From Alphaproteobacteria bacterium UBA3307 (GTDB lineage Bacteria; Pseudomonadota; Alphaproteobacteria; RF32; CAG-239): DNA of 50,038 bases. Each line of letters starts with the position of its first letter. Within the stretch, counting starts at the first letter, position 1. Location of the stretch: positions 1 to 50,038 of the forward strand of contig DEST01000090.1 of assembly GCA_002361365.1 (NCBI GenBank). Direction: 5' to 3'. The notes under the pieces were generated by a model, which saw only the letters and a program-made list of their open reading frames with translations, did not search any database and was not told the origin of the DNA. Made by a program: the position numbers and the translations under genes. This document shows, piece after piece, positions 35,042 through 50,038 of the stretch.

Positions 35042-35148
35042 TTTTCCCTCAAAAACTCTCAAATTACTGGTAAAATTAGCCGATTTATGTGGTAAATTCA
35101 AGCAAAAACCGGCATTCATAAACAAAAATATAAAGTAGAATTTTTTTG

Positions 35149-35816: not shown

Positions 35817-36024
35817 ATTATACCAAATTTTTATCTCGCCGTTATTTCCGGGAGTATGCCGCTTTCAACCGACGTGTTCACAATATATGATTGAGGCGAT
35901 AAAAATACACGGCATTATTAAAGGAATTTGGCTGGGATTTAAGCGAATCTGCCGTTGTCACCCGTGGGGAGGCTCCGGATACGATGCGGTTCCGCCTAAA
36001 GAAATACGGCATAAGTCAAGTTAA
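35788..36024 (+). CDS. yidD: Membrane protein insertion efficiency factor YidD
   Basis: [35 protein letters not shown]...[17 protein letters not shown] is the YidD signature. Start set at ATG 35788, which overlaps the end of rnpA. The upstream part of track ORF 35596.. is out-of-frame overlap with rnpA. Confidence 0.88.
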
Positions 36025-36091
36025 TTGCTTGATTTTTGTAGCATTATAATTTAGAAAGTATAAAAATTTGAAGCAAAGGGAGTCTTAGTTT

Positions 36092-37765
36092 ATGAATGAA
36101 GATTTAAAAGGTTTATATGCCGCAATCGTACTTTCTGCATTTGTGGTTTTGGGCATGAATTATTTTTTTCCGAAACCAACAAAGCAAACTACAACAACCG
36201 CAGAAGAAGTTGTAATTACTCCGGCGATTGATGCAAATAGTGTTGACGAAACTGCCGATAAGGCCGAAGAAAAATCACTTCTCACCGCAGAAATTTTGCC
36301 ACAAGACGCGCGTTTACCCATTAAAAATGCGGTTTTACAAGGTTCTGTACGCCTTAAAGGAGCGCGTTTAGATAACCTGTTGCTGACAAAATATCACGAA
36401 ACAATAGAACCGGAAAGTCAGAATGTTACTTTATTTGCTCCTTCTAAAACGGCGGAGGCATATTTTGCCGAATACGGTTGGCTCAGTACGGATAAATCAC
36501 TTAATTTACCAAACGCCGATACTTTATGGAAAGCGGAAGGTAATACCGAGTTGACGCCTCAGACACCGGTTACCCTTGTATGGGAAAACGGGCAAGGTTT
36601 GAAATTTGTAAATAAATTGACGCTTGATGAAAATTATTTGTTTGGACTTGAGCAAACGGTTGAAAATAATTCCGGCAGAGCTGTAACATTGTTGCCATAC
36701 GGTTTATTTTCTAAATCCATTGATGAAAGTTCAAAATCTCGCGGAGTGGTTCACGAAGGCTTTGTCGGAGTTCTTAATGGCAAACTCAAGGAAATTCGCT
36801 ATAGCGATATGAAAGAAAATCCGCAAGAGTTTACAACTACCGGTGGGTGGGTTTCTTTTGCCGACAAATATTGGTTCGGTTCGTTTGTGTTTGCAGATAA
36901 CGCAGATACAAGAGTCAATTTGCGCAAAGTCAAAAACGGAGTGTATCAACTCGATTATAAAGGCACACCATTACAATTGCAAACAGGTGAAAGCACAACC
37001 ATAAATACAAAACTTTATGCCGGTGCCAAAGAAATAAAACTACTGGATAAATATGCCGAAAATATTAAAAAGTTTGACCTTAACATCGATTTTGGCTGGT
37101 ATTATTTTCTGACTAAGCCGTTTTTCTATATTTTGGATTTTCTGTATGGTTTAATCGGAAATATGGGCTGGGCAATTCTGCTGTTTGCGGCAATTTTGCG
37201 ACTTTCTATGTTTCCACTGGCTCACAAATCATACGATAATATGTCAAAGATGAAGAAAGTACAGCCGAAAATTATGGCCTTGCAAGCAATGTATAAAGAT
37301 GATAAAATGGCGTTGCAACGTGCCACAATGGAGCTTTATAAGCGCGAAAAAGTTAATCCGGCTGCCGGTTGTTTGCCGATGTTTTTGCAAATTCCTATTT
37401 TCTTTTCGTTGTTTAAGGTGTTAAATATTGCCATAGAAATTCGTCATGCACCGTTTATCGGTTGGGTTAAAGACCTTTCCGCACCGGACCCGCTGACGAT
37501 TTCTACTTGGGCGCATATTTATATCCCTTCGGCAATAGATATCGGTGTATGGCCGCTGATTTATGGATTGACTATGTTTATTCAAAATCAGCTTAATCCT
37601 AAACCGGCCAACAAAGACCAAGCTCGGATGTTTGCGCTGATGCCGATTTTATTTACAATTATGTTTGCACATTTTGCTGTCGGATTAGTGATTTACTGGA
37701 TTTTAAACAACATTCTGTCGCTTATTCAGCAAAAAATCATAATGTATAAAAACGGAGTAAAATAA
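36092..37765 (+). CDS. yidC: Membrane protein insertase YidC
   Basis: N-terminal TM, a large periplasmic domain, then the conserved 60-kDa IMP core (GWAILLFAAILRLSMFPLAHKSY...AAGCLPMFLQIPIFFSLF). Confidence 0.93.
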   Translation: MNEDLKGLYAAIVLSAFVVLGMNYFFPKPTKQTTTTAEEVVITPAIDANSVDETADKAEEKSLLTAEILPQDARLPIKNAVLQGSVRLKGARLDNLLLTKYHETIEPESQNVTLFAPSKTAEAYFAEYGWLSTDKSLNLPNADTLWKAEGNTELTPQTPVTLVWENGQGLKFVNKLTLDENYLFGLEQTVENNSGRAVTLLPYGLFSKSIDESSKSRGVVHEGFVGVLNGKLKEIRYSDMKENPQEFTTTGGWVSFADKYWFGSFVFADNADTRVNLRKVKNGVYQLDYKGTPLQLQTGESTTINTKLYAGAKEIKLLDKYAENIKKFDLNIDFGWYYFLTKPFFYILDFLYGLIGNMGWAILLFAAILRLSMFPLAHKSYDNMSKMKKVQPKIMALQAMYKDDKMALQRATMELYKREKVNPAAGCLPMFLQIPIFFSLFKVLNIAIEIRHAPFIGWVKDLSAPDPLTISTWAHIYIPSAIDIGVWPLIYGLTMFIQNQLNPKPANKDQARMFALMPILFTIMFAHFAVGLVIYWILNNILSLIQQKIIMYKNGVK

Positions 37766-38415
37766 TGGCAGAAAAATTCAGCACAGAAGAAATTAAAATC
37801 GCTGAGAAGCAGTTTACGCGCCCGATAAATTTTATGCTGAGTGTAGCACATTTAGAACAATTGCCTGATGATAGATATCCTGAAATTGCGTTTGCCGGAC
37901 GTTCCAATGTGGGAAAATCCAGCCTTATAAATGCACTGTTTAATCAAAAAAAACTGGCAAAAACATCTTCCACTCCTGGACGTACGCAACAACTAAATTT
38001 TTTTAATTTTGATGACAAGCTGTTTTTGGTTGATATGCCGGGGTATGGATATGCCGAAGCACCGGAAAAACTCGTAAAACAATGGCAAGCCATTTTAAAA
38101 ACCTATTTGCGCGGACGACCGAATTTACGTCGGGTTTTTGTGCTGATTGATGCTCGACACGGTATAAAAAAAGAAGATTTAGAAATTATGAAATTGCTTG
38201 ATGAATCGGCAGTTTCGTACCAAATTATCCTAACCAAGATTGATAAGATTTCCGGTATGGAATTAAATAAAACAGTGACAAAAATTGCCGTAGAGATTGC
38301 CAAACACGCGGCTGCTTTACCGGATATGATTGTCACCAGTTCGGAACAAAAAATCGGGCTGGAATTACTTAAAGCTGAAATCTGTTCGTTTATGCAAATT
38401 ACTAAATGTTCTTAA
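37765..38415 (+). CDS. engB: Ribosome-biogenesis GTPase EngB/YihA
   Basis: G1 GRSNVGKSS, G3 DMPGYG, G4 TKIDK. The start overlaps the yidC stop by 1 nt. Confidence 0.92.
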   Translation: MAEKFSTEEIKIAEKQFTRPINFMLSVAHLEQLPDDRYPEIAFAGRSNVGKSSLINALFNQKKLAKTSSTPGRTQQLNFFNFDDKLFLVDMPGYGYAEAPEKLVKQWQAILKTYLRGRPNLRRVFVLIDARHGIKKEDLEIMKLLDESAVSYQIILTKIDKISGMELNKTVTKIAVEIAKHAAALPDMIVTSSEQKIGLELLKAEICSFMQITKCS

Positions 38416-39560
38416 ATAGAGCACTTTGTCGAAGCATTATTGTTTCCGCGGCTATCAAGCACAACATCTATTATGGCAAAAATAGAATAAATCTGACTGA
38501 CGACATCTCGTATTTTGTGATAACTTAGTGCAGGTGTAAACAATGAGGTGGTTTCAAACATATCTTTGCGAGTATGAATTGCAATCAGGAGTTTGTTGTC
38601 CCAGAAACTGAAATCAATATGTTTACCGTGAAACAAGCGTTTTATCTCCAGCATTTTTTCCATAAACAATGGCGTCAAAATATAGCGAGCCTCAACCTGA
38701 TTATCGGTTAGAACTTTCCATTTTTTTATAAATAGCAATCCCTCAAGCTTTACTTTTTGGGTTGCTTTTTTGGGGTTATAGCGGCGATAAACCAAATATA
38801 TTACACCGATAATAAACAGAGGAAATAATATCGGAACCCACGCAAACAGCAAACTAAAAGGCACTCCCGGTTCCGTAAAATAGTAATAATATATCAAAAA
38901 TGACGGACTTAACAAAAAAACTAAAACCATCATCAATAGCGGATTATTCCATAATAAATTAAGGTTTCTGCCACGATTTAAGGCGATTGTTTTACCTCGA
39001 TTTTTTTGAGGCAGTTCCAGCATTATCATTACTCCGCTAAAAATATTGGTTTCACCGCGATTGCCGTGAATTTTAAGATTCTGCTCCGATATTTTTATAT
39101 TGGTGCCGCGATATTCTCCCTTAAACGAATCGTCAACGTCAGAACGATTAAAATACGAAAATAATTCTGCCCGCTTGATGGTATCCGGTCCGATTATATC
39201 AGAGCCGCAATAAGTAAACTTACCCCAAAAAGATATAAGCTTTTTCATTACTTTGCACTTGGTCGTGTTACGGTATTGTAAAAACGGCATATACAACATA
39301 ATTACAAAAAATATTACAGCTACTGTAGAAATTAGGGAAAACCATTGTTCATATGTGTTATCCGCTGTAAGAATATTAAATTGAAACAACAGTAGCACAA
39401 TCAGAATCGTTGCAAACAGAGCAAATAATGTTTTGAATAATTGGCGCAAACAGGTGTGCCGTTCTTGTTCTAATTCTTGATATAATGATTGCAAACTTGT
39501 TTTATAAAAGTCGTAAAACTTTTGTTGTGTTGAGGCCAGTTCTACATTAACTTTTTTCAT
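38412..39560 (-). CDS. Multi-pass membrane protein, tentatively DUF3137-like; last gene of the VirB10/VirB11 operon
   Basis: 382 aa with two pairs of TM helices flanking soluble segments. My assignment of motif-level resemblance to DUF3137 (FSGVMIMLELP...; LLIAIHTRKDMFE) is from memory only. It begins 18 nt after the virB11 stop. No Walker motifs, so it is not VirD4. Confidence 0.5.
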   Translation of the reverse strand: MKKVNVELASTQQKFYDFYKTSLQSLYQELEQERHTCLRQLFKTLFALFATILIVLLLFQFNILTADNTYEQWFSLISTVAVIFFVIMLYMPFLQYRNTTKCKVMKKLISFWGKFTYCGSDIIGPDTIKRAELFSYFNRSDVDDSFKGEYRGTNIKISEQNLKIHGNRGETNIFSGVMIMLELPQKNRGKTIALNRGRNLNLLWNNPLLMMVLVFLLSPSFLIYYYYFTEPGVPFSLLFAWVPILFPLFIIGVIYLVYRRYNPKKATQKVKLEGLLFIKKWKVLTDNQVEARYILTPLFMEKMLEIKRLFHGKHIDFSFWDNKLLIAIHTRKDMFETTSLFTPALSYHKIRDVVSQIYSIFAIIDVVLDSRGNNNASTKCSI

Positions 39561-39578: not shown

Positions 39579-40553
39579 TCACGTTACTTCCGTTATGGCG
39601 CGTTGGTTTCCCAAACGTTGAATCTGCACCACATGCAACTTGCGCCGCATCTCATCGAGTGTTTGCTCAACGTTTACAGCACCGTTGGTAGAAGCCATAA
39701 TACGTTTTATAAATTGCAGATAGGCCTCTTGCGAACTTTCCGCGTGAATGGTGGCAAAACAGTTGTCATGGCCGGAACCCATAAGCTGCCAAATACCGCT
39801 GGCGTTACTGGTTGAAATTTCGCCGCCGATAATTGCATCCGGCGTAAAACGTACGACCAAGTCGATGATGCCGGAGTAGCTAATGTCGTTGGTTTGATTG
39901 GTACGTGACATCACGAGGTGAACACGATTCGGATGCGGAACAATCAACTCTCGTGTATCTTCAACCGTAATAATTCGTTTATGAATATCCAAAATTTTCA
40001 GCAAATTATTTAAAAAAGTTGTTTTACCGGTTGATGTTGCGCCGGACACCAAAATGTGTTCACCTCGCTTTATATACAGAAGCAGACGTTCATAAGCATC
40101 ATCCGGAACCTTAATATCCTTAAGCGGATTCAGCTTTTGGAGCGCTTGCCCCTGTTTCATTCCGTAATCTTCGAGACCGAAAGCAACGTCATCGGAATGC
40201 AGACGAATTGCCAGAGCGATACCGCCTGTCAAATCTTCTTCATCATACATAACGTTTTTCCCGCAGATTGCGGAAAATCGATGGTCTCCCGGTATGGTGG
40301 CATACACAAACGGAGACCCCTGAATCGGATCAAACTCTAACTCATAGGTATTTGCAATTATGTAGAGTAAATCCGTCAGATATTCTTTAGAAAGTTTTTC
40401 GTCTTTATACATAACCCACGGATAAGCACGTTTACCACGCATTCGGAGCCAAATTTGGCCCGCACGATTGATGGCGACCTCTTCGAGGTTATCTTGATTA
40501 TACCAATAGGATAAAGGTCTTAATACTGATTCCAATACTGAAAAATCACTCAT
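39579..40553 (-). CDS. virB11: VirB11-type type IV secretion traffic ATPase
   Basis: Walker A GATSTGKTT, Asp box RIITVEDTRELIV, RFTPDAIIGGEIS (compare the RPDRIIvGEvR motif), and His box GHDNCFATIHAESSQEA. Start set at ATG 40553 with a GGAGGAAGG RBS, 10 nt after the stop of the upstream gene. Confidence 0.88.
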   Translation of the reverse strand: MSDFSVLESVLRPLSYWYNQDNLEEVAINRAGQIWLRMRGKRAYPWVMYKDEKLSKEYLTDLLYIIANTYELEFDPIQGSPFVYATIPGDHRFSAICGKNVMYDEEDLTGGIALAIRLHSDDVAFGLEDYGMKQGQALQKLNPLKDIKVPDDAYERLLLYIKRGEHILVSGATSTGKTTFLNNLLKILDIHKRIITVEDTRELIVPHPNRVHLVMSRTNQTNDISYSGIIDLVVRFTPDAIIGGEISTSNASGIWQLMGSGHDNCFATIHAESSQEAYLQFIKRIMASTNGAVNVEQTLDEMRRKLHVVQIQRLGNQRAITEVT

Positions 40554-40563
40554 CGCCTTCCTC

Positions 40564-43500
40564 CTATAACAACTCCGGCACATCACTCGATTCACCGCCG
40601 TCCATAGATGGTAACGGTTGGTCCGAGCTTGGAGCAACATAGCCTGCCGGATTTTGGTTTACATTACTTGTCGGCGCCGGTGTACGTGTCGGTACGGCAG
40701 CCGGATTACCTTGCGGAGCGCTCGCCGGTTGAACATTTTGATAATTACCGTTATAAGTAACACCTCCGCTGTCTGATGGGCTTCTGCTTTCTTCATCAGG
40801 ATCCAATAATCCGCCTTTTCCATCAAAATCTCTGCCACCGGAACCTGAACTGCTGATTCGTTTTGAGCGCTCACGGCTGTTGAGCCACAAATCTTCATTA
40901 GGATAGATAATAATGCGTGTACCGGCCGGAACATAAGTTACCGAGCGAATTTTTTCTTTATCTTCTATCATTTCCTTTAAAATTTCTTTCATTTGCTCAT
41001 TAAAATTCTTACGCCCGTCCGACATTGCCTGACTACGAGCATCGGCTGTGGTAGTACTGGTACCATCGCTACTTACTGAAGTTGTAGAGTTTCCTCCTGA
41101 AGCTAAAAGCCAGTTGGCAGCAGTTTGCAAGGTAGTTGTAACCAGCGGTAACGAATATTTTTTAAGCAATTGCTGGTCCAAATAACCGATAGCGCCGGCA
41201 CGACCTTGAGCATCGGCTGTTTGAGCATCACTAAAGCGCCATTGTGAACCATCCGGACGAATAAGTCTGGTCCAAGTGATACCGATTTTGGCAGCTCCGC
41301 CGTTATTGGCATTGACACCGCCGCCGGAATCGACTTCACCAATAACACGTGAACCTGCCGGAATTATCACGTTTCGACCTTCTTCGGCATAAACGTTGCG
41401 TTCCACAATAGCAGTAACCGGAATTTTCTGGCTCAGACTATCCGAAGCATAAACCGAGCGTGCCAAAACTGCCGGAATACCCTTATCTTGTAAAATCATC
41501 TCGCTCATATCTACACGCCATGAAGATATCTGATTAGGACTTGGTCCACCATCCCAACCATCTTTTTCGTATCCGGTAAAAGCGGCGACTTCCGCATCAT
41601 TATTACTAGGGTCTGCCGGTAGCTCTCCCATTCCGAGAGAATTACGCCTATTGTTTTGCGCCGCCATCAATGCCTGAGCTCGCAGTGGGTCATAGCGTTC
41701 ACCCTGACCATACCCGCCACCGGCTCCGACATTGGTCGGACGCTCGCCATGTCCATACGGATTACCCGTACCGTATGCATTTGGCGGAATAAACATTTCG
41801 CTTGCAGATGGTCGTCTTATTTCTTCAAAACCTATGAGATTATGGTTTACATCGACAACATTACCATCTTGGTCAACATAACCTTTTAAATCTCCATTAT
41901 CATCACGAACTGTACCATCATCATAAATATTTCCTATAATATCACCTTCCGGATTAAGAGCAATTCCGACAATTCTATTGCCAAGTTTTTGACGTTTAAC
42001 TTTAGTTTCACTAACCGTTGATGGTTGGGTAGTTTGAGTTTGAGGTTGAGATTGCTCCGTTTCAGCATCTGCAATCGTAGGACGTCGGCGTGGTTTATAT
42101 TCCGGTTCAGCTTCGGCAGTGGTTTTCGGCACATAAATATAATATTGATATGGGGTGGCCAAGGCAATTTCGTTGCCGTCAGCATTGCGAATAATTCCGG
42201 TTTCCGTTAAATATCCGATGTTTTGTCCCTCAAAATCTGTAACAGTACCGTCTAACTGCAACACGCCAACCGGATTTTGACTGACATCACGGACAATGTA
42301 ATCGCGGTTACCTCGTGCAATTACCTGTCCGCTACGGTCGGTTACAAAACCGCGGTCAAGTTGCCCCAATCTGCTACCGACAGGGCTCAGAACGGTGCCA
42401 TCTTTAGTCAGGTATCCGTATGTGGAAAAGTTTTCGTCATACACATAAAAATCATAAAGTGCGTAACCGATATTTTCTCCATTAGCCTGAACGCTACCAT
42501 CAAAATTAACCTCACCGACAGGTTTGCCGGCTTCGTTAATCACCATACCGCCGGCACTGACCATACCCAAAAACTTGTTGGCATCGGTGTACGCTACCTG
42601 ATAACGCATAACATTACCCAGCACTTTTTTAGATTTAGAAACAACGTTTCCATTCGGCTGCATATATCCGACAAGCTGGCTATCTGCTCCGAAAACTTGT
42701 CCGTTTGCCGCCACATTACCAATGATTTTATTTTCAAAATCAATTACCGGAGCCGGAATTATAACACCATATTGTTGAGCTTTTGTTTGGTTTAAAATCA
42801 GACCTTCACGGTTGACGCAACCCAATGATTTTCCTTCAAAATCCGTACCAAATCCGGCGTTTACCGTACCAACATAATTACCATTAAAATCTATCAGCCC
42901 GTTTCCTTGCACGGCATAACCGATATAATTACCGGCATCTGATATTGCTTGTCCGTTCGGTAAAAGACGACCGATTATTACATCTCGACTGTTTACAATA
43001 TCTCCTTTACCGTTAACAACACCGATTACTGAGCATTTTTCGTTAACAACCGGTGCAAATGTTATTAGTTTGCCGTTTATTGCGCGATTATTATCAATAA
43101 TATATTCGTTATACACTACCTTACCGTAAATATTGCCATTTAGCCCGATTACAGTGCCGGTCGAATCAGCATAACCAATTAAATCTCCGCCGATATTCAG
43201 TGCTATCATTTTATTGTCGGCAAAACCTTTTAGCGGGCTCATTGCAGCAGATGCTGCATCGTTTGTTTCTACCGCATATCCCGCCGGAACAATTTTATAT
43301 GCAATAGCGTTAGATTTATTCAAAATCAGGTTACTATTGGCAAATCTACCTAATGGATTGCCCTCAAAATCAAGTGCATACATCGGAGTAATCAAAGCTC
43401 CGGCATAACCTTTAGACTCAAGCAATATCCCTGATGGAGTCAGTTTTGCTCCGGTACCTTGACGATAAAGTTCGCCGTTAGGATTGATATACGAATAAAG

Positions 43501-44841
43501 CGTTCCTTCCAAACCATACGCGGCAGAAAGCGGATATCCGCCGCCAAAAACTTTACCATCCGCATTAAATAGATATCCAAACGGTGATATTTTACCACCA
43601 CCGGAGCCGGAAGCAACAGTTGCATCAATATTGTTCATTCCCAAAGGTTGCAATGTGTTATTTATGGCAATCATGCCGCTAGCTACACCGCCGATAAGAG
43701 TTCTGTTATCATCAAATGCATAACGACCTCTGGCATAACCGATTTCACCACCGCTTGTAGATATAATACGCCCATTAGGCAAACTTTGACCTTTAAGATG
43801 AGCCAAAGCATCATAAACCGGTCCGGTTTGTACCAAGGCACCGATTTTATTATTTTGTTCATCATAAACATAGCCTTTTGCACCGATATGGCCTATAATT
43901 TGTCCGCCACGTACAATATTGCCGCCGGGAACAATATAGCCTAAGTATCTGCCAAAATTATCATTCGCAGTAGCTGCTATATTAACGGCAAAACCGACCA
44001 CATCTCCATTGGCACGTACCAAACTGCCGTCTGCCCGATAGCGAGCTACAACACGTTCACCTTGTTTAACTTCGCCATTGTAACTGACAATTCCGATATA
44101 TTTACCTATTTGATCAAAAGCATAACCGGTGGCAATTACACTGCCTATAATCCTGTTTGCCGAATTATAAGCATAACCGTTAGCGTGAATTTTCCCGATT
44201 TCTTTACCTTCAAAATCGACTATTTTTCCACTTGGGGCAATACTGCCTAAAAAGCGCCCGTCTACAGAAACCACCATTTTAGAAGACATCAATCTGCCGT
44301 CTAAAATATACTCATCTCCGGAACGGCGATAAGCATACCCGTTAGCGGAAACAAAGCCGATACGTTGTCCTTCCAATTTGGTATATTCTCCGCCGCCGGT
44401 TAAACGTCCGAGTGCATCACCTTTAGGGGAGTATATCAGCCCCGGATACAAAATAGCACCGATAACTTCTGCAGAATCATCTATTACCAATCCATTTGGT
44501 AAGGCCTTGCCTAAAGTACGTCCGCTCAAGCTACGTACAAAACCGTCAGTATGAACTTTACCGAGTAAGCGGTTGTCCATTCCAATAGCAATACCTTGCG
44601 GCACTACCCCACCGATGACCGCGCCATCTTCATTTATAATCAAGCTGTCTGCTGTAATTGTGCCGATATTATTACCATCTGCGCTTATAACCATACCGGT
44701 TGAAATCACTTGACCGATGATATTGCCGGAAAAATCGATTGCGGTAATTTCTGCGGCCTGAGCCACAGCAACCAAAGATAATAAAATCGCCCAACAAAGC
44801 ACCCACACTTTTTTAATATATCGACTTATGCTGCATCTCAT
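40564..44841 (-). CDS. Giant (1425 aa) VirB10/TrbI-domain protein. Architecture: N-terminal anchor or signal sequence, about 870 aa of 17-residue repeats, a Pro/Gln-rich linker, a VirB10 beta-barrel domain, and a Pro/Ser-rich tail.
   Basis: C-terminal aa ~1105-1320 (nt 40882-41529) read IPAVLARSVYASD...VTAIVERNVYAEEGRNVIIPAGSRVIGEV...ITWTRLIRPDGSQWRF...DAQGRAGAIGYLDQQLL...VTYVPAGTRIIIYPNEDLWL, the classic VirB10/TrbI pattern. The N-terminus is MRCSISRYIKKVWVLCWAILLSLVAVAQA. There is a 2-nt gap to the upstream gene and a 10-nt gap to virB11. Confidence 0.88.
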   Translation of the reverse strand: MRCSISRYIKKVWVLCWAILLSLVAVAQAAEITAIDFSGNIIGQVISTGMVISADGNNIGTITADSLIINEDGAVIGGVVPQGIAIGMDNRLLGKVHTDGFVRSLSGRTLGKALPNGLVIDDSAEVIGAILYPGLIYSPKGDALGRLTGGGEYTKLEGQRIGFVSANGYAYRRSGDEYILDGRLMSSKMVVSVDGRFLGSIAPSGKIVDFEGKEIGKIHANGYAYNSANRIIGSVIATGYAFDQIGKYIGIVSYNGEVKQGERVVARYRADGSLVRANGDVVGFAVNIAATANDNFGRYLGYIVPGGNIVRGGQIIGHIGAKGYVYDEQNNKIGALVQTGPVYDALAHLKGQSLPNGRIISTSGGEIGYARGRYAFDDNRTLIGGVASGMIAINNTLQPLGMNNIDATVASGSGGGKISPFGYLFNADGKVFGGGYPLSAAYGLEGTLYSYINPNGELYRQGTGAKLTPSGILLESKGYAGALITPMYALDFEGNPLGRFANSNLILNKSNAIAYKIVPAGYAVETNDAASAAMSPLKGFADNKMIALNIGGDLIGYADSTGTVIGLNGNIYGKVVYNEYIIDNNRAINGKLITFAPVVNEKCSVIGVVNGKGDIVNSRDVIIGRLLPNGQAISDAGNYIGYAVQGNGLIDFNGNYVGTVNAGFGTDFEGKSLGCVNREGLILNQTKAQQYGVIIPAPVIDFENKIIGNVAANGQVFGADSQLVGYMQPNGNVVSKSKKVLGNVMRYQVAYTDANKFLGMVSAGGMVINEAGKPVGEVNFDGSVQANGENIGYALYDFYVYDENFSTYGYLTKDGTVLSPVGSRLGQLDRGFVTDRSGQVIARGNRDYIVRDVSQNPVGVLQLDGTVTDFEGQNIGYLTETGIIRNADGNEIALATPYQYYIYVPKTTAEAEPEYKPRRRPTIADAETEQSQPQTQTTQPSTVSETKVKRQKLGNRIVGIALNPEGDIIGNIYDDGTVRDDNGDLKGYVDQDGNVVDVNHNLIGFEEIRRPSASEMFIPPNAYGTGNPYGHGERPTNVGAGGGYGQGERYDPLRAQALMAAQNNRRNSLGMGELPADPSNNDAEVAAFTGYEKDGWDGGPSPNQISSWRVDMSEMILQDKGIPAVLARSVYASDSLSQKIPVTAIVERNVYAEEGRNVIIPAGSRVIGEVDSGGGVNANNGGAAKIGITWTRLIRPDGSQWRFSDAQTADAQGRAGAIGYLDQQLLKKYSLPLVTTTLQTAANWLLASGGNSTTSVSSDGTSTTTADARSQAMSDGRKNFNEQMKEILKEMIEDKEKIRSVTYVPAGTRIIIYPNEDLWLNSRERSKRISSSGSGGRDFDGKGGLLDPDEESRSPSDSGGVTYNGNYQNVQPASAPQGNPAAVPTRTPAPTSNVNQNPAGYVAPSSDQPLPSMDGGESSDVPELL
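42142..44751 (-). repeat. Coding tandem array of roughly 50 degenerate 17-residue units (x-G-x-x-[IL]-G-x-[VI]-x3-G-x-[VI]-x3) inside the VirB10-domain gene
   Basis: The first units have an exact 17-aa register: G39, G56, G73, N90, G107, A124 of the protein. The pattern persists with indels to about aa 900. Confidence 0.8.
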
Positions 44842-44843
44842 CT

Positions 44844-47800
44844 TTAATTCCTCCGGTTGCGCGCCACTTCAGGCAAACTGTAGCCCGAAACATTTTTATC
44901 TGCATCTACAAACGAACCGTTGCTCTTTATGTAGCCGATTTCCTGATTTTCGCCGGAAACAACGCGTCCATTTGCTGACAAGCGTCCTAAATAATCTCCG
45001 TTATTAGAAAGAACTGTATTGCCGATTGTATAAATATGACCTATGATATTATTTTGCTTATCTACAGCAAAACCATCAGTTAATATATGCCCGATAACAC
45101 TACCATTGCGATATACCTTACCATCAAATCCTACCACGCCCTTAACCGTGTCATCATTGCCTATAACAATATCACCGCTCACAACTTCTCCTAAAAACTG
45201 TCCGTCAGTGCTGATGACTTTGCCGTCTGATAACACACGACCTGCATACAGATGCTTGGTATCTGCAAATGTTCCGTCCGGTAAAACAGTTCCGATGATT
45301 TCTCCGGCAGAATCAATTACTATACCGGTTTGTAGCGCCACCAAATTGTTACTGTTACCACCTCCCGGTAGCAAAATCGACAGTATCGCGCCATCGGCAC
45401 CGATGACTGCACCGACATCGTTAGATATTCCGACCGGATTACCAAACACATCAACCATCACACTTTGTGGTAAAACCTCACCCACAACGCGATTTTCATT
45501 CAGCACCAAACCATCAGGAGCTGTGTATCCGGTAACTTCTCCAGCGTTGTATTGTTTACCTTCCGCATTGATTTGCGGTTCAGGTTCAATCACCTCTCCG
45601 GTCGGTACGGCATAACCTAAATATGTGCCGTCATATCCGCGAACTCCTCCCTGACGCACGACTGAGGCAATCAAACGTCCTTGCTCATCAAACATCTGTC
45701 CTTTTACATTGACCTTACCCACATACGTACCTTTATAATCCAACACTCTTAAATCATAGTTTATCTGACCGATGCGTTGTCCGCCAGTATCCACAATATG
45801 TGCCGGACGCACAAATTTTGCCGCCATACCGCCGTAAATTCCAACTTCTCCGCCGTTTATAACATCTACCGGCATACCATTTTCGTCATATACTTTACCG
45901 TCAGGAAACAAATGCCCGATTTTTTGACCGGCTGAATTATATAAAATATTTATCTCCGGAACAGCATAACCTACGATTTTACGATTTTTATCCGCCACAA
46001 GATTACCAAATATCACATGCGCTCCGCTAACATTTTTCAGTTGCGGATTTCCATATTTATCAAAAGTGCCAAGCGGTTTACCATCAAAGCTAAAGGCATA
46101 TTTTGCCGTAGAAATAGAGCCGATATATGCAGAATTTTTATCATATACATCACCATAAGCATTTGCACAGCCTATATAGTCTCCTTTAGAATTTCGCAAC
46201 ATACCGCCAGCCTCTAAAATGCCGAGCGGTTTCCAGCTACGACGCGAAATTACTACTTTTTTGTTGACTAAATGACCTTTAATGCGCGGTTGTTCCAAAT
46301 CTAAGACCGTGCCGTCCGGATTTAAGCAACCAACCTCTTGTCCGTCTGAATCACGCACATACCCATCGGCATTGGCCTCTCCTACATACGAGCATTCTTC
46401 ATCGTATACACTACCTGTTGGCATCACCCGACCGGCAAAAGCACCTTGTCCGGTCCAAACAGTACCATCAGCATAAATGCGATAATCCGTTTCAACGCCA
46501 TCGCGACGAATCACACCGTCTGCATCCAACTTAGTACTGAAATCACAACCCCAGTTGACAATATATCCATAGCGTACGCCTACTGCCAAAATTTTAGCTC
46601 CTGACACATCGGTTACCAACCCGTCCGGTCGCATTTTACCAACAACTTTTTGCTGATTTATGACTTCTCCTCGATTGTTGACTGTTCCTAAAACCGTACC
46701 GGCCGGAGTAATCGGCAACAAACTTTTATCAATCGCAGAGCCGATAATTTTGCGACCAAACGAACGAATATTGCCATTTACGTCTATCAGACCGATAATT
46801 TCTCCCTTAGCATTACGAACCACGCCCTTTGCATCTGCAAAGCCCAAAATTTTTCCGTTTTCATCAAGTCCCAATCTGGCTTTTTCTCCAACTTTGCCAA
46901 TAACGTTGCCATCTTCGTCTACAATATTACCATTCTCATCTACTTTACCGATTCGATTACCATTAAAATCATAAACATTACCGTCTTCGTCAACATAACC
47001 GATTACATTGCCGTCTTCATCTAACGCCAAACGGACGTTACGGCCGACTGTGCCTATAACATTGCCGGCACGGTCTTCAGTAATAACATTTCCGTTTTCA
47101 TCTACCTTGCCGATAACATTACCGTCAAAATCATGAGCAATTCCAAACTTATCAACATATCCGATAGGTTTTCCGTTTTCATCTAATACTACCCTATTTC
47201 CTGTACCGCGATGACCGATAATATTGCCATTAGCATCTACAATGTTGCCATTGGCATCTACACGGCCTATTACATTGCCTTTAAAGTCACGCACAATACC
47301 ATTTTCACCGATAATACCGATAGCATTGCCGTTTTCATCTACTGCAACGGAATCTCCTCCATAACCGATAATATTACCGTTGGTATCGCGAACAATGCCG
47401 TTTTCATCCATCGTTCCGATAATATTGCCATTTAAATCACGCACAACACCATTTTCGTCAACATAACCAATTACATTGCCGTTTTTATCATAAACTCTGT
47501 TATCTGACGAAGCGGCAGTACCTATCACCTTGCCGTCTTTATCTACCACATTTCCGTTTTTATCGACATAGCCGATAATATTGCCGTCTTTATCTCTTAC
47601 TACTTTACCCCCGGCGCCTCGATGGCCGATTACTTTGCCATTGACGTCTAATACTTGGCCGCTCGCGTCTACTCTGCCTATTACATTACCATCAAAGTCG
47701 CGTACTATTCCATCTTCTCCTATAAGACCTATTACTTTGCCATTTTCATCTACAGCTACTGCATCTCCGCTGTAACCGATTATCTTGCCGCTCGCATCTC

Positions 47801-49553
47801 TAACTACGCCGTTTTCATCTGCTCGGCCGATGATGTTACCTTCAAAGTCACGTACTGTCCCGTCTTCTTCTACATACCCAATTACATTGCCGTTCTCGTC
47901 ATACACCAATTTTTTACCATCGGTAAATCCTATTATTTTTCCGTTTTTATCTAACGCCAATTCTGTATCCTTACCGACAGAACCAACAATTTTTTGATTT
48001 GCTGTATTGCCTATAATGTTGCCGTCTTTATCAACATAACCTATGATATTGCCATTAGAATCGTGCACTAAACCATCTTCATCTATATAGCCGATTACAT
48101 TGCCGTTTTCATCTAAGGCCAAATCGTGCCATTCATCACTGACATGGCCGATAATATTGCCGTTTGTATCTACAACATTGCCATCTTTATCTACTTTACC
48201 GATAACATTACCGTTAAAATCGCGAACATTACCGTCTTCATCTACGTAGCCTATAATATTGCCGTTTTCATCATGAACAATCCGTGCTGCCGAACCGCGT
48301 TTGCCTATAATCTGCTTGTCTACCACCGTACCATCTGCGGCAACTTGCCCCACAATATTGCCATCGGCGTCAACCACATCTCCATTTGGCAATACAATAC
48401 CGACGACCTCGCCGTTTTCATTCAAAATCGCCTCACCGGCTTTGGCTACACGGCCAATAACATTTCCGTTTGCATCTACCACTTTTCCGTCTTTATCTAA
48501 TCTGCCGATAATATTGCCATTTAAATCAGTTACCGAGCCATCTTGATTAACCCTACCGATAATATTGCCGCTTGCATCGTACACATAGCCATAATCAGCC
48601 GCTTTGCCGATTACCTGACCATTTTCATCAACTACCGTTCCATCTGCCAGCATTGTACCGATAACATTGCCCTCCATATCATGAGCAACACCGTTTTCAT
48701 CAACATAGCCTATAACATTGCCGCTTTCATCCAAAATCAACTTACCATTACCGGCGACACCGATAATGTTGCCGTCCATATCGACAATCATACCATCATC
48801 ACGCAAACGACCGATTTCTCTGCCCTGAAAATCGCGTACAATACCATTTTCATCCACAATGCCAATAATTTCACCGTTAGGACCATATGCATAACGAGTT
48901 TTACCCTGTGGAGTGGCAGATATACTGTTTTTGCCGCCGTTGGTTTCGCAATAATTACAATCAGAAGGATTAAGTGCCGTACCATAAATTGAAACTTCAT
49001 CGTGCTTAGCACTCGAATCCTGCACGTTAGTTTCGTGCCACACAATTTTAAAGTTACTCTGAACACTTCCCGGCATAGACGGATTCCATTTAATTTTTAC
49101 GCTGCAAGTATTTTTACCGCGTAAATCGCGTTCTTTACAATCAGATTCATAATCAAATTCTGCCGATGCCGGAGCATCTTCAAGCTCTACCGATAAAACA
49201 CGAATTTCTTTGTGTCCATTGGTGCCGATTGTTAAAACACCGGTTGCCTCATTGCCGACAAAAATATTTCCTAGGTGAATTTCTTGAGGAATCATCGTAA
49301 TCGGACGTTCTACCGTACTTGGAGAATCAAACACAATTTCCGATGAATTATCTTGAACATCTTGTACGCCGGTTTTCAGCTCGTCTTGTGTATCGGTTTC
49401 CGGTATATAATGTTCAACCGGCTTTTCTTCTTCCGAGCCGAGCAAAAGCAAGCTGAACAAAAATACGCCCAACGTTACCAAACCGAAAATCATTATGATT
49501 CGGTTGGTTTTGCGTACATATCTGTCAGAATGGGTTAACGGCTCTTTACTCAT
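44844..49553 (-). CDS. Giant (1569 aa) membrane-anchored repeat protein. Architecture: short cytoplasmic N-terminus, TM helix, Ig-like (choice-of-anchor-D/ASH-like) domain, then about 1340 aa of 17-residue G-N-V-I-G-x-V-D-x-D-G-x-V-x-D-x-N repeats.
   Basis: An uninterrupted 4.7-kb ORF. TM helix at aa 18-39 (IIMIFGLVTLGVFLFSLLLLG). Aa 85-195 (HLGNIFVGNEATGVLTIGTNGHKEIRVLSVEL...CSVKIKWNPSMPGSVQSNFKIVW) look like an Ig-like beta-sandwich. The repeats run from aa ~222 to ~1560. It is 3 nt from the upstream gene and 2 nt from the downstream gene. Confidence 0.9.
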   Translation of the reverse strand: MSKEPLTHSDRYVRKTNRIIMIFGLVTLGVFLFSLLLLGSEEEKPVEHYIPETDTQDELKTGVQDVQDNSSEIVFDSPSTVERPITMIPQEIHLGNIFVGNEATGVLTIGTNGHKEIRVLSVELEDAPASAEFDYESDCKERDLRGKNTCSVKIKWNPSMPGSVQSNFKIVWHETNVQDSSAKHDEVSIYGTALNPSDCNYCETNGGKNSISATPQGKTRYAYGPNGEIIGIVDENGIVRDFQGREIGRLRDDGMIVDMDGNIIGVAGNGKLILDESGNVIGYVDENGVAHDMEGNVIGTMLADGTVVDENGQVIGKAADYGYVYDASGNIIGRVNQDGSVTDLNGNIIGRLDKDGKVVDANGNVIGRVAKAGEAILNENGEVVGIVLPNGDVVDADGNIVGQVAADGTVVDKQIIGKRGSAARIVHDENGNIIGYVDEDGNVRDFNGNVIGKVDKDGNVVDTNGNIIGHVSDEWHDLALDENGNVIGYIDEDGLVHDSNGNIIGYVDKDGNIIGNTANQKIVGSVGKDTELALDKNGKIIGFTDGKKLVYDENGNVIGYVEEDGTVRDFEGNIIGRADENGVVRDASGKIIGYSGDAVAVDENGKVIGLIGEDGIVRDFDGNVIGRVDASGQVLDVNGKVIGHRGAGGKVVRDKDGNIIGYVDKNGNVVDKDGKVIGTAASSDNRVYDKNGNVIGYVDENGVVRDLNGNIIGTMDENGIVRDTNGNIIGYGGDSVAVDENGNAIGIIGENGIVRDFKGNVIGRVDANGNIVDANGNIIGHRGTGNRVVLDENGKPIGYVDKFGIAHDFDGNVIGKVDENGNVITEDRAGNVIGTVGRNVRLALDEDGNVIGYVDEDGNVYDFNGNRIGKVDENGNIVDEDGNVIGKVGEKARLGLDENGKILGFADAKGVVRNAKGEIIGLIDVNGNIRSFGRKIIGSAIDKSLLPITPAGTVLGTVNNRGEVINQQKVVGKMRPDGLVTDVSGAKILAVGVRYGYIVNWGCDFSTKLDADGVIRRDGVETDYRIYADGTVWTGQGAFAGRVMPTGSVYDEECSYVGEANADGYVRDSDGQEVGCLNPDGTVLDLEQPRIKGHLVNKKVVISRRSWKPLGILEAGGMLRNSKGDYIGCANAYGDVYDKNSAYIGSISTAKYAFSFDGKPLGTFDKYGNPQLKNVSGAHVIFGNLVADKNRKIVGYAVPEINILYNSAGQKIGHLFPDGKVYDENGMPVDVINGGEVGIYGGMAAKFVRPAHIVDTGGQRIGQINYDLRVLDYKGTYVGKVNVKGQMFDEQGRLIASVVRQGGVRGYDGTYLGYAVPTGEVIEPEPQINAEGKQYNAGEVTGYTAPDGLVLNENRVVGEVLPQSVMVDVFGNPVGISNDVGAVIGADGAILSILLPGGGNSNNLVALQTGIVIDSAGEIIGTVLPDGTFADTKHLYAGRVLSDGKVISTDGQFLGEVVSGDIVIGNDDTVKGVVGFDGKVYRNGSVIGHILTDGFAVDKQNNIIGHIYTIGNTVLSNNGDYLGRLSANGRVVSGENQEIGYIKSNGSFVDADKNVSGYSLPEVARNRRN
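46734..48890 (-). repeat. Highly regular coding repeat array with a 51-nt (17-aa) period; about 43 G-x-[VI]-[IVL]-G cores by my count, with nested higher-order duplications
   Basis: Protein aa 222-940. Core spacing is exactly 17 aa in long stretches (for example G278, G295, G312). A 137-aa super-repeat (aa 550-686 versus 687-823) shares idiosyncratic elements at the same offsets (IGY[SG]GD[AS]VAVDENG; IGHRG[AT]G). Confidence 0.85.
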
Positions 49554-49556
49554 ATT

Positions 49557-50038
49557 CTATTGCGTCCTCACAACACTACAAAACACCCCGCCACGCCCGA
49601 GCTGACCGCAGATAGAATCTCCGGCTTCTAAATTTTGTATCGGGCCTACACGCAGATGAAACAATTCTTTACCCTGCCCGTCTGCCGGTGCGTCGACTGA
49701 ATAAAATGGCTCATATCCGCCTAAAATTCCGGAATACCTTCCTGATAAATCTTTCCACAGTTTTTCCAAATTATTTACACTGTCGTCCGTGCCCAGCTCT
49801 ATTGACAAACTTTCTCCCGATTGGCCGCTAAAGCCGGAGCCGTATTTATATTGTGGATACGGATTGGCAATATTTTTGCCTCCGGTAATATTACAATTAT
49901 TTCCGCTACAATTCATTGCCGGTAATTCAGACATTGCACTATTATCTGAGGTGATATTCATACTCATCAGACTGTTTTGTGCCGCATTGGGTACAATCAA
50001 TCCGCCATTAGGACCTTTGATATATCCGCCATTGCCGG
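49557..50038 (-). CDS. C-terminal part of a SPOR-domain (peptidoglycan-binding) protein; the ORF stays open to the window edge
   Basis: The last ~80 aa read SLSIELGTDDSVNNLEKLWKDLSGRYSGILGGYEPFYSVDAPADGQGKELFHLRVGPIQNLEAGDSICGQLGRGGVFCSVV. This fits the SPOR pattern: a beta-alpha-beta-beta-alpha-beta fold with the signature ...lyRlrvGP....A..lC..L...G..C.vv. The codons upstream of the track TTG start continue without a stop (…GNGGYIKGPNGG…). The stop is 3 nt before the giant repeat gene. Confidence 0.7.
   Translation of the reverse strand, partial: GNGGYIKGPNGGLIVPNAAQNSLMSMNITSDNSAMSELPAMNCSGNNCNITGGKNIANPYPQYKYGSGFSGQSGESLSIELGTDDSVNNLEKLWKDLSGRYSGILGGYEPFYSVDAPADGQGKELFHLRVGPIQNLEAGDSICGQLGRGGVFCSVVRTQ

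Follow-up and report, generated by a model that had tools for sequence, protein, structure and literature searches.

A beta-flower repeat protein encoded between virB9 and virB10 is probably the membrane-anchored half of a split VirB10 in uncultured gut Alphaproteobacteria

Canonical VirB10 proteins are ~380–450 aa long, and VirB10 is believed to pass conformational changes driven by ATP on to the gate in the outer membrane. Repeat-carrying forms include CagY, whose repeats are Cys-containing and helical rather than beta-flower hairpins, and Legionella pneumophila DotG, whose repeats are of the pentapeptide type. VirB10 is regarded as the sole T4SS subunit bridging both membranes (PMC9371333). 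The Helicobacter pylori homologue CagY is much enlarged by internal repeats that minimised systems lack, and Legionella DotG/IcmE is an expanded VirB10 with central repeats, accompanied in the core complex by a separate bitopic inner-membrane partner, DotF (PMC9371333). A similar gene order is known from the Rickettsiales rvh T4SS, a chromosomal P-type system in which two virB8 copies flank a small virB7-like lipoprotein gene, with virB9, virB10, and virB11 following (PMC2653234). Beta-flower proteins were described separately as Pfam families PF21784, PF21785, and PF21786 plus DUF3659 within clan CL0395 (Durairaj et al. 2023, PMC10584680), and their hairpin tips, like those of Tubby proteins, carry a semi-conserved [DNEQ]xxG motif (PMC10584680).

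Our window is a 50,038-nucleotide stretch of a contig from Alphaproteobacteria bacterium UBA3307, and the features discussed below are collected in Table 1. A sequence-only reading of this DNA had claimed a 1569-aa ORF with a membrane anchor, an Ig-like domain, and a 17-residue repeat, and all of these proved real by ORF calling, AF2 modelling, and lag-17 identity. The ORF opens with ATG and closes with TAA, and its proposed membership in a T4SS locus was borne out by synteny with virB9, virB10, and virB11. The truncated virB9 encodes a weak SPOR-like C-terminal domain, and a full-length VirB9 orthologue from another locus (L005) has 538 aa with CagX and SPOR domains; no virD4 was found after virB11 in this window. 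The order virB8, 62-aa lipoprotein, virB8, virB9, this gene, virB10, virB11 recurred in loci L002 and L003 and in essentially all 82 loci. This arrangement resembles rvh in the duplicated virB8 flanking a small lipoprotein gene and in the virB9-virB11 order, but no split or repeat-expanded VirB10 has been described there, and the hosts here are gut and rumen MAGs rather than Rickettsiales. The repeat-protein gene was present in 109 species-representative genomes. Its hosts are uncultured gut, rumen, and faecal Alphaproteobacteria (~80 genomes in which the locus was seen), and it always lies between virB9 and a virB10 that encodes a signal peptide. Our literature search found no paper on a T4SS in the RF32 group, nor on a split VirB10.

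Table 1. Features of the repeat-protein gene and its neighbours in the window (aa numbering refers to the protein encoded by each gene)
Feature	Coordinates	Strand	Evidence
Whole ORF, 1569 aa, proposed VirB10-N	44844..49553	(-)	ORF calling, synteny, single-chain homologues
Basic cytoplasmic tail, aa 1-18 (MSKEPLTHSDRYVRKTNR)	49500..49553	(-)	Alignment of 18 orthologues
Single TM helix, signal anchor, N-in, aa 19-39	49437..49499	(-)	AF2 and visible hydrophobic stretch
Acidic disordered linker, aa 40-84, poorly conserved	49302..49436	(-)	pLDDT, composition
ASH/PapD-like Ig beta-sandwich, aa 85-194	48972..49301	(-)	AF2, Foldseek, Pfam ASH
Linker, aa 195-221, with conserved C-x-x-C at aa 198-201	48891..48971	(-)	Orthologue alignment
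Regular 17-residue beta-hairpin (beta-flower) repeats, aa 222-940	46734..48890	(-)	Period, HMM, AF2
Degenerate beta-flower repeats, aa 941-1569, more hydrophobic/aromatic	44847..46733	(-)	Bflower_2 fragments, lag-17, composition
Most conserved segment, aa 1450-1569	44847..45206	(-)	Column identity, alignments
virB9 (CagX-family) 3' end, cut by window end	49557..50038	(-)	Pfam
VirB10-C, partner gene, 1425 aa	40564..44841	(-)	Pfam, signal peptide
virB11 ATPase	39579..40553	(-)	Pfam
Proposed fission junction	44839..44854	(-)	SD GGAGG 44850-44854, TAA 44844-44846, 2-nt spacer, virB10 ATG 44839-44841

The protein begins with a cytoplasmic tail that carries 5 Lys/Arg in residues 1–18 and is nearly invariant across 18 orthologues. 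Residues 19–39 are hydrophobic, and the AF2 model contains a helix at residues 8–39 with pLDDT up to 93. The tail and single TM helix anchor the protein N-in, with the remainder beyond the membrane. The linker that follows is acidic (12 Asp/Glu vs. 2 Lys/Arg) and has pLDDT <50 at aa 41–80, whereas aa 85–194 were modelled as a 9-strand beta-sandwich at pLDDT 80–91, with Cys138 and Cys149 conserved; low pLDDT returns in the linker at aa 195–221. The best Foldseek matches of this Ig-like domain in the PDB were the ASH/PapD-like Ig domains of CEP192 (6fvi) and HYDIN (2ys4 and 2e6j) and VesB/VesC (4lk4), all at probability 1.0, and its TMt of 0.57–0.64 against 6fvi, 2ys4, and 2e6j places it among PapD/MSP-type beta-sandwiches. 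Sequence HMMs for ASH/PapD-like families (PF15780, PF22544) gave 22.7 bits, below the threshold of 27, and sub-threshold Pfam ASH matches appeared in 14 of the 18 orthologues. A PDB sequence-profile search with the N-terminal alignment returned no match at E ≤ 10.

This anchor and Ig-like domain had been judged not to be a known T4SS subunit architecture. By contrast, we found the same module at the N-terminus of single-chain VirB10 proteins in relatives, and canonical VirB10 proteins, such as Agrobacterium tumefaciens VirB10, pKM101 TraF, and R388 TrwE, begin with a short cytoplasmic tail and one TM helix. Our profile search recovered 11 cluster representatives at ≤50% identity, 1498–2406 aa long, with the N-terminal module at residues 1 to ~200 and TrbI at the C-terminal end; all 11 matched the N-terminal profile from residues 1–14 onward, with E values from 1e-14 to 4e-48. 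These proteins combine the tail, TM helix, and Ig module with beta-flower repeats and a VirB10 (TrbI) domain in one polypeptide, and the tail motif L[TS]SS[DE]xYx[RK]K[ST]NR is retained in the single-chain VirB10s P0163 and P0172. Where single-chain genes were checked on their contigs (L084, L087, and L088), each was one gene between virB9 and virB11.

The ORF in our window likewise has the tail and single TM helix, the virB9-virB11 position, and homology to the N-terminus of TrbI-domain proteins. It is not a complete VirB10 by itself because the TrbI domain lies in the next gene, and PF03743 (TrbI) gave no match in the 1569-aa ORF. The downstream TrbI protein, in turn, lacks a cytoplasmic tail and TM helix and has a signal peptide instead. 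We consider it probable that this gene encodes the N-terminal, inner-membrane half of a giant repeat-expanded VirB10, which a clade of uncultured Alphaproteobacteria from gut, rumen, and faeces encodes as two translationally coupled genes. Taken with the downstream gene, the pair would supply the Pro-rich linker and TrbI barrel of canonical VirB10/TrbI proteins. It would differ from them in being encoded by two genes, in the cleavable signal peptide of the TrbI half, and in carrying an Ig-like domain and ~130 predicted beta-hairpins between anchor and barrel, for a combined ~3000 aa. CagY is likewise a VirB10 homologue enlarged by repeats, but it is one polypeptide, and CagY and the split VirB10 are probably unrelated outside the TrbI domain. 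DotG and DotF also pair an expanded VirB10 with a separate bitopic inner-membrane protein; however, DotF has no homology to the VirB10 N-terminus, which the present protein demonstrably has. When split and single-chain forms were compared by BLAST, only the N-terminal module, the junction region, and TrbI mapped cleanly, and repeat placements were ambiguous; in 6–7 single-chain proteins, the best position for the junction region was directly behind the Ig domain. Because the repeat regions could not be aligned collinearly between the two forms, the history may be either a simple fission or a fission with partial duplication.

The two genes meet within a repeat. VirB10-C starts with a cleavable signal peptide (aa 1–29, ...VAVAQA/AEITAIDF, with the slash marking cleavage), and ~55 degenerate beta-flower hairpins follow; a Pro-rich linker then leads to the TrbI/VirB10 domain at aa 1116–1320 (PF03743, 110 bits). 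In the orthologous VirB10 halves, signal peptides end in A-x-A and are followed by the invariant mature start EITA[IV]DF, and conservation of the first 200 aa of VirB10-C equals that of the TrbI core. On the other side of the junction, aa 1450–1569 of the repeat protein have a column identity of 0.60–0.77 and terminate in NVSGYSLPE, half of a repeat unit, and then the tail VARNRRN. The break thus lies inside one 17-residue unit, of which 9 residues end this protein and the other 8 begin mature VirB10, and a chimera of the C-terminus minus its tail and mature VirB10 could be aligned with single-chain VirB10s straight through the junction, at the cost of a gap of one residue. The C-terminal 330 aa of the repeat protein also resemble the first 350 aa of VirB10-C. 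At the nucleotide level, the Shine-Dalgarno GGAGG sits within the final Arg-Arg codons (CGG AGG) and is conserved across loci, many of which have a TAATG or TGATG stop/start overlap. The basic C-terminal NRRN is kept even where the Shine-Dalgarno has moved (L078), and so the conserved tail may have a function of its own. A conserved programmed frameshift rejoining the ORFs was considered and rejected, as frame relation and spacing vary and each VirB10-C has its own start codon and signal peptide.

These junction features also bear on whether the protein became, after fission, an independent accessory periplasmic scaffold uncoupled from VirB10-C, such as a cell-wall/peptidoglycan anchor or spacer for the T4SS. 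The weak SPOR-like domain of VirB9 would suit such a role, as would the wide differences in repeat number between species: orthologues range from 1138 to 2734 aa in length, which tracks the number of canonical units (r = 0.88). Legionella core complexes can also assemble without DotG, so VirB10 continuity is not always essential (PMC9371333). Still, we regard an accessory scaffold as unlikely, given a break within a single repeat unit, conserved translational coupling, the loss of VirB10-C's own membrane anchor, and conservation peaks on either side of the break, which rank with the best-conserved stretches of the two proteins.

The split could alternatively reflect a decaying remnant, with a VirB10 gene broken by a nonsense mutation or frameshift, or faulty assembly of a repeat array. 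Assemblies are often interrupted at such arrays, and all of the protein-database hits (18/18 N-terminal and 12/12 C-terminal) are fragments. However, the gene was intact and separate from a signal-peptide virB10 in 69 of the 69 loci informative for both, in different species, and an exactly identical protein occurs on three contigs (the fetched contig being recorded in 2 samples). The ORF was also intact in independent assemblies, where a disruption would have pointed to a pseudogene. The repeats are diverged at the DNA level, as TRF reported a sole 51-bp array with 2.6 copies at 71% match. Together with the junction and the strong conservation of both ends, the 69/69 loci effectively refute the remnant or artefact explanation.

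Between the anchor and the junction, nearly the whole protein is repeat. Lag-17 identity was 0.313 in aa 222–940 vs. 0.100 ± 0.011 in shuffles (z = 19.8), and 0.150 vs. 0.074 (z = 7.5) in aa 941–1569. Within the regular array, conservation reaches its minimum at aa 500–850. The consensus of 22 exact 17-mers, G-N-[VI]-I-G-[YR]-V-D-[EK]-[DN]-G-x-V-[RV]-D-x-[ND], was identical to that from 1060 orthologue units and reproduced the G-N-[VI]-I-G-x-V-D-x-[DN]-G-x-V-x-D-x-N first proposed by eye. Two further observations of the sequence-only reading held up under measurement: the repeats degenerate after aa 940, with aromatics at 7.8% vs. 4.2% in the regular half and Pro also enriched, and the repeat region matches the downstream VirB10 fusion over ~1000 aa (26% identity, E = 1e-79). 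D-x-[DN]-G occurs 47 times in the 1569-aa protein and only 4 times in the VirB10-C repeats.

The number of units, put earlier at about 80, is harder to fix. A unit HMM detected ~35 canonical units in aa 222–940 and only 9 recognisable ones beyond aa 940; such a 17-column HMM, even when iterated, cannot count degenerate units (44 in this protein and 15 in VirB10-C), and we therefore estimated the total from AF2 strand density, at one hairpin per ~17.5 aa (33 strands in 288 aa). Because of this spacing and a Bflower_2 match in every fragment tested, ~77 hairpins in the array are plausible, although the figure is an extrapolation and the HMM-recognisable units are fewer.

In contrast to the earlier statement that the repeat could not be placed in a named family, it scored far above the Pfam cut-offs for Bflower_2 (PF21785; 350.8 bits, E = 1.2e-106, cut-off 38, 17 stretches), Bflower (PF21784; 175.8 bits, E = 4.4e-52, cut-off 25), and DUF3659 (PF12396; 125.1 bits, E = 1e-36, cut-off 24.8). 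Bflower_2 was matched by all six isolated 140–170-aa fragments taken along the array. Four of these came from the degenerate half (E values of 4e-9 to 3e-14, except for aa 1251–1400 at 9e-5), and three of the four score at or below the PF21785 cut-off. Relatives carry the NCBI name “5-fold beta-flower protein.” By these profile matches, the 17-residue repeat is a member of a named but uncharacterised beta-flower hairpin family. Because that family has no characterised function, the placement does not tie the repeat to an established role unrelated to secretion, and our literature search on DUF3659 function found nothing relevant. The only NCBIfam match was to the YD-repeat. RHS/YD repeats are similar in being ~20-residue beta-hairpin repeats with D-x-x-G turns and in the local Foldseek matches to Rhs shells. 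However, the weak to moderate RHS-type scores (RHS_repeat 50 bits, TIGR01643 58.6 bits) included 0 individually significant stretches, TM-scores to Rhs shells were ≤0.14, and there was no Rhs core, toxin, or cocoon context. We rejected a YD/RHS identity, as the repeat-level resemblance is overlapped by the much stronger Bflower_2 matches.

The AF2 model of aa 532–819 is all beta-hairpin (pLDDT 82), and DSSP assigned 33 alternating strands of 3–5 residues and no helix of ≥4 residues, in line with the expectation of one beta-hairpin per unit with two Gly turns. In the consensus unit, each of the two turns reads D-x-[DN]-G, and the [DNEQ]xxG motif occurs 128 times. Confident blocks of ~90 aa are parted by ~50 aa of lower confidence, and pTM is only 0.43; this pattern is compatible with separate modules, and the hairpins may be arranged either as closed flowers, the shallow 4-, 5-, or 6-fold barrels of this fold, or as a ribbon. 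Foldseek searches of the repeat model against the PDB returned only local, hairpin-level matches with TM-scores ≤0.2 (Rhs shells, designed propellers, beta-trefoils, and choline-binding repeats), indicating no solved structure with the same global fold, and a search against viral models was uninformative. The array thus resembles beta-flower proteins in its HMM scores, its [DNEQ]xxG tips, its short antiparallel hairpins, and its want of a global PDB match. Described beta-flowers, by contrast, are small single domains of 8–12 strands, many of which enclose a C-terminal helix or carry a lipoprotein signal, whereas here ~77 predicted tandem hairpins without helices would lie inside a T4SS subunit.

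The recurrent D-x-[DN]-G element had also been likened to the calcium-binding loops of DxDxDG, RTX, or thrombospondin-type repeats, an analogy that found no support at the motif level. Neither D-x-[DN]-x-[DN]-G motifs nor GGxGxD nonapeptides occur in the 1569-aa protein or in VirB10-C (0 in each), and there was no match at E ≤ 0.01 to Pfam HemolysinCabind (RTX), TSP_3, or EF-hand. Calcium binding is unsupported: the two turns in every unit are hairpin turns of four residues, D-x-[DN]-G, which belong to the [DNEQ]xxG hairpin-tip kind, and no DxDxDG or RTX motif is present. In degenerate repeats of the same family, the first Asp of the turn is largely lost. These motif searches suggest that the arrays are not a Ca2+-dependent fibre.

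A Ca2+-stabilised fibre or adhesin of DxDG loops, possibly surface-exposed or secreted by the T4SS with the basic C-terminal tail as a signal, nevertheless has some points in its favor. The regular half is very acidic (net charge −55, 12% Asp), the basic C-terminus (...EVARNRRN) is like some T4SS substrate signals, and the CagY repeats are thought to be surface-exposed. Yet the N-terminal signal anchor, with its positive charges inside, fixes the protein in the inner membrane, the Arg-Arg codons of the supposed signal form the Shine-Dalgarno of the next gene, and in homologues this module forms the N-terminal part of a structural subunit. Combined with the missing motifs and the unconserved first Asp, this leaves such a fibre very improbable.

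Returning to a split VirB10, we propose that the protein fissioned into two genes, one encoding an anchored repeat half and the other a TrbI half. The downstream gene supplies the signal peptide, further beta-flower hairpins, the Pro-rich linker, and the TrbI barrel, from which the outer-membrane core complex is built. Each half would be exported separately by Sec and would then re-associate in the periplasm, either because a beta-strand or hairpin of one half completes the broken unit of the other or through packing of the paralogous degenerate modules, and this could restore the VirB10 connection from the inner to the outer membrane. By analogy with the repeat regions of CagY and DotG, the hairpin arrays may act as a bulky, length-variable periplasmic scaffold. 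A “spacer” cannot be the whole story because ~1350 plus 1000 repeat residues per protomer far exceed what is needed to span the periplasm. The beta-flower repeat also occurs in other periplasm-spanning connectors: a Dot/Icm locus (L085) encodes a DotG-like protein with it, and Tad pilus loci encode CpaB/RcpC with it. More tentatively, it is possible that this is a stable natural split of VirB10 in which the halves rejoin via the broken hairpin repeat and covalent continuity is dispensable, with beta-flower arrays forming a very large periplasmic cage or ring and serving as a general connector module of envelope-spanning machines (VirB10, DotG, and CpaB) in gut Alphaproteobacteria that are abundant yet uncultured.

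A conserved natural split in at least 69 species-level genomes offers a test of whether the relay through VirB10 needs a continuous chain, and it defines a compact candidate interface, in which the last 120 aa of the repeat protein would face the first 200 aa of VirB10-C. The beta-flower fold, described in 2023 without a function, is now found in subunits that serve as periplasmic connectors in T4SS-A, T4SS-B, and Tad pili. Our finding also flags a previously undescribed expanded T4SS in widespread gut and rumen commensals. If the proposal is true, covalent continuity of VirB10 from the inner to the outer membrane would be unnecessary for T4SS function.

Canonical VirB10 is thought to bridge the inner and outer membranes (PMC9371333); its parts are a cytoplasmic tail, a single TM helix, a Pro-rich linker and the TrbI barrel. 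In this lineage, these elements are distributed over two adjacent genes. The tail and TM helix belong to the study protein, and the gene downstream encodes a 1425-aa protein (VirB10-C) in which a typical, cleavable signal peptide (…VAVAQA|AEITAIDF) replaces the anchor; after it come degenerate beta-flower repeats over about 900 aa, then a Pro-rich linker and the TrbI/VirB10 domain. VirB11 comes next, and upstream of the study gene lies the C-terminus of a CagX/VirB9 homologue, truncated by the window end. With the anchor in one protein and TrbI plus a signal peptide in the other, this arrangement suggested a split. The TM-anchored, Ig-like architecture proposed in the sequence-only reading was borne out by the TM helix and by a modelled beta-sandwich whose best PDB matches were ASH/PapD-like Ig domains of CEP192, HYDIN and Vibrio VesB/VesC (Foldseek probability 1.0); Pfam ASH matched 14 of 18 orthologues, below the gathering threshold every time. 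The periplasmic part of this N-terminal module (basic tail, TM helix and Ig-like domain) also carries conserved cysteines, an Ig-internal pair (C138, C149) and a C-x-x-C motif just past the Ig domain, which are likely to be disulfide-bonded or to make up a redox or metal site.

Features of the study protein, its partner and related loci (nt positions refer to the window unless a locus is named)
Feature	Position, nt (strand)	Residues	Property
Study gene	44844..49553 (-)	1-1569	intact ORF
Basic tail		1-18	almost invariant among orthologues
TM helix		19-39	
Acidic disordered linker		40-84	
Nine-strand beta-sandwich		85-194	pLDDT 80-91
Conserved cysteines	48950-49142 (-)	138-201	C-x-x-C at 198-201
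Super-repeats	46734-47960 (-)	532-940	
Variable middle		501-800	column identity 0.16-0.31
C-terminal edge		1451-1569	column identity 0.60-0.77
virB10 Shine-Dalgarno	44839-44870 (-)		
VirB10-C gene	40564..44841 (-)	1-1425	
VirB10-C N-terminal edge		31-230	column identity 0.64-0.67
VirB10-C TrbI core			column identity 0.57-0.69
VirB9/CagX homologue	49557-50038 (-)		truncated
DUF3137 gene	38412-39560 (-)		
rnpA, yidC, GyrB-family gene	35397-37765 (+), 33041-35125 (-)		adjoin T4SS operon
VirB9 with SPOR-like end	L005 8381-9997		
Two genes upstream of virB8	L005 550-6498		
Long orthologues	L030 10001-18205; L076; L028	2227-2734 aa long	up to 67 canonical units
DotG-like gene	L085 8001-9359		
CpaB/RcpC gene	L086 6001-7461		beside secretin

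A profile of the N-terminal module, searched against 1.84 billion representative proteins, returned 958 matches, many of them unrelated multi-Ig proteins. Eleven representatives that are distant from one another (1498-2406 aa; P0132, P0149, P0163, P0171, P0172, P0173, P0177, P0194, P0205, P0209 and P0221) match from residues 1-14 onwards, contain beta-flower repeats and end in a TrbI domain 33-47% identical to that of the window VirB10. At the three single-chain loci checked (L084, L087 and L088), one gene occupies the interval between virB9 and virB11, and the first two have a duplicated virB8 pair upstream, like split loci. Split and single-chain forms also have the cytoplasmic motif L[TS]SS[DE]xYx[RK]K[ST]NR in common. 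Since these relatives carry the N-terminal module and TrbI on one chain, the study protein is homologous to the N-terminal region of a giant VirB10 made as a single chain. Ordinary VirB10s have their anchor at the N-terminus of one continuous chain, which would make fission in the lineage of the window the parsimonious direction. Fission with partial duplication is possible, because the last 330 aa of the study protein are similar to the N-terminal 350 aa of VirB10-C. The repeat regions of split and single-chain forms gave no collinear alignment.

The break itself falls within a repeat unit. The study protein ends in …GSFVDADK-NVSGYSLPE-VARNRRN(stop) and mature VirB10-C begins with (A)EITAIDFS-GNIIGQV…, such that NVSGYSLPE (9 residues) and EITAIDFS (8 residues) together make up exactly one unit of 17 residues. 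With the tail and signal peptide left out, a chimera of the two proteins aligned with single-chain VirB10s straight across the junction, with a gap of one residue (in P0132, …NIIGSVMPSG-TVVDYLGRVLG…), and in 6-7 of these VirB10s the best placement of its junction was immediately behind the Ig domain. In both proteins, the edges of the break rank among the best-conserved parts (see table). The virB10 Shine-Dalgarno, GGAGG, is embedded in the final Arg-Arg codons (CGG AGG) of the study gene and is conserved at the nucleotide level in most loci, and in many the stop and start overlap as TAATG or TGATG. These features indicate that the two halves are translationally coupled. In L078, a related locus, the codons are now CGT CGG with a new AAGGAA downstream, and the peptide tail NRRN is retained; its persistence where the Shine-Dalgarno has moved suggests that this basic tail may have a role of its own.

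The repeat array is unlikely to have collapsed during assembly, because its units are well diverged at the DNA level: TRF recovered a single array (51 bp, 2.6 copies, 71% match). An identical protein occurs on three contigs, and the one fetched, a 50-kb metagenome contig, is recorded in two samples. The period of 17 residues greatly exceeds chance expectation, with a lag-17 identity of 0.313 at aa 222-940 compared to 0.100±0.011 in shuffles (z≈20) and of 0.150 compared to 0.074 at aa 941-1569 (z≈7.5). The consensus, G-N-[VI]-I-G-[YR]-V-D-[EK]-[DN]-G-x-V-[RV]-D-x-[ND], was recovered again from 1060 orthologue units. About 35 canonical units lie in aa 222-940, and the remaining ones are degenerate. 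As modelled by AF2, aa 532-819 (pLDDT 82.4, pTM 0.43) consist of beta-hairpins throughout, with 33 strands in 288 aa and a hairpin about every 17.5 aa, which extrapolates to about 77 hairpins in the study protein. The array also contains super-repeats of three units (about 52 aa) and of eight units (137 aa; aa 555→692), the latter in agreement with the AF2 pLDDT periodicity, and the first turn is degenerate in every third unit.

The sequence-only reading could not place this repeat in a named family. Pfam, by contrast, assigned the entire array to Bflower_2 (PF21785; 350.8 bits, cut-off 38, E=1e-106), Bflower (PF21784; 175.8 bits, cut-off 25, E=4.4e-52) and DUF3659 (PF12396; 125.1 bits, cut-off 24.8, E=1e-36). 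All 140-170-aa fragments tested matched Bflower_2, including four from the degenerate half, and NCBI labels one relative a '5-fold beta-flower protein'. The family is thus already named but uncharacterised: AlphaFold models were the basis for describing the beta-flower fold, a small barrel with 4-6 'petals', which are beta-hairpins carrying a semi-conserved [DNEQ]xxG at their tips (Durairaj et al. 2023, PMC10584680). In the study protein, the hairpins may close into such flowers or form a ribbon. Against the PDB, Foldseek gave the repeat model only local, hairpin-level matches (Rhs shells, designed propellers, beta-trefoils and choline-binding repeats), none with a TM-score above 0.2. RHS/YD identity was rejected, as its weaker scores lie under stronger Bflower_2 matches and reflect repeat-level resemblance. 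The proposed analogy to Ca2+-binding loops was likewise not supported. Both turns of the unit are a 4-residue D-x-[DN]-G, which is the beta-flower [DNEQ]xxG motif; motif searches found neither D-x-[DN]-x-[DN]-G nor GGxGxD in the study protein or the VirB10 repeats, and the Pfam search gave no RTX, TSP3 or EF-hand match. Moreover, D-x-[DN]-G occurs 47 times in the study protein vs. 4 in the VirB10 repeats, which belong to the same family, so the first Asp is dispensable for the fold. Since the regular half is strongly acidic (net charge -55), it could still bind cations non-specifically.

We found the N-terminal module in 109 genomes in a scan of one genome per species, nearly all of them rumen, gut or faecal MAGs carrying an Alphaproteobacteria label, with a few records labelled otherwise (e.g., Bacteroidaceae or Eubacteriales). 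In all 69 loci showing both genes, the orthologue was intact (1138-2734 aa) and separate from virB10, and its length followed the number of canonical units (r=0.88). This identifies a conserved, copy-number-variable component, and a pseudogene reading was rejected. Repeat count is highly variable among species, and both protein ends are conserved.

Essentially all 82 related loci keep a fixed gene order: a 485-aa protein, a roughly 1000-1500-aa protein, VirB8, a 62-aa VirB7-like lipoprotein (LSAC lipobox), VirB8, VirB9, the study gene, VirB10 and VirB11. The duplication of virB8 around virB7 resembles the Rickettsiales rvh system (PMC2653234). The first two genes, in the same position in about 40-65 loci, had no Pfam match; the 485-aa product looks coiled-coil-rich by eye, and both may be T4SS components specific to the lineage, possibly VirB6-like. 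In this clade, the VirB9/CagX homologue (about 490-600 aa) has a weak SPOR-like C-terminal domain (Pfam SPOR E=9e-4 and 5.5e-3), an unusual ending for a VirB9 that could bind peptidoglycan. After virB11, the window contains no virD4; a DUF3137 membrane protein gene there recurs in only 1 of the 82 loci and is therefore not part of the conserved operon. The surroundings are chromosomal (lpxI, lpxB, tsf, rpsB, relA/spoT, lptD, lptF/G, a GyrB-family type II topoisomerase B subunit gene, rnpA, yidC and engB), with rpmH also called beside rnpA. This housekeeping neighbourhood indicates that the T4SS is a stable chromosomal feature rather than borne on a mobile element.

We propose that both halves are exported by Sec, the study protein signal-anchored and VirB10-C cleaved, and would re-associate in the periplasm at their conserved edges, possibly completing the broken hairpin. 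This would restore an inner-to-outer-membrane VirB10 whose cytoplasmic tail could still contact the inner-membrane machinery. The hairpin arrays, about 130 per pair, would form a bulky, length-variable periplasmic scaffold, an amount of periplasmic protein far above the need of a simple spacer. Repeat-expanded VirB10s are already known, with CagY and DotG as precedents (PMC9371333). Searchable literature outside subscription journals yielded neither a stably split VirB10 broken within a repeat unit nor a T4SS built with beta-flower arrays. A type IVB (Dot/Icm) locus encodes a DotG/IcmE-like TrbI protein that also has beta-flower repeats, and 22 CpaB/RcpC proteins encoded in Tad pilus loci contain them too. 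Thus, several envelope-spanning machines have such arrays in their periplasmic connector subunits, which suggests a general periplasmic connector role for the arrays.
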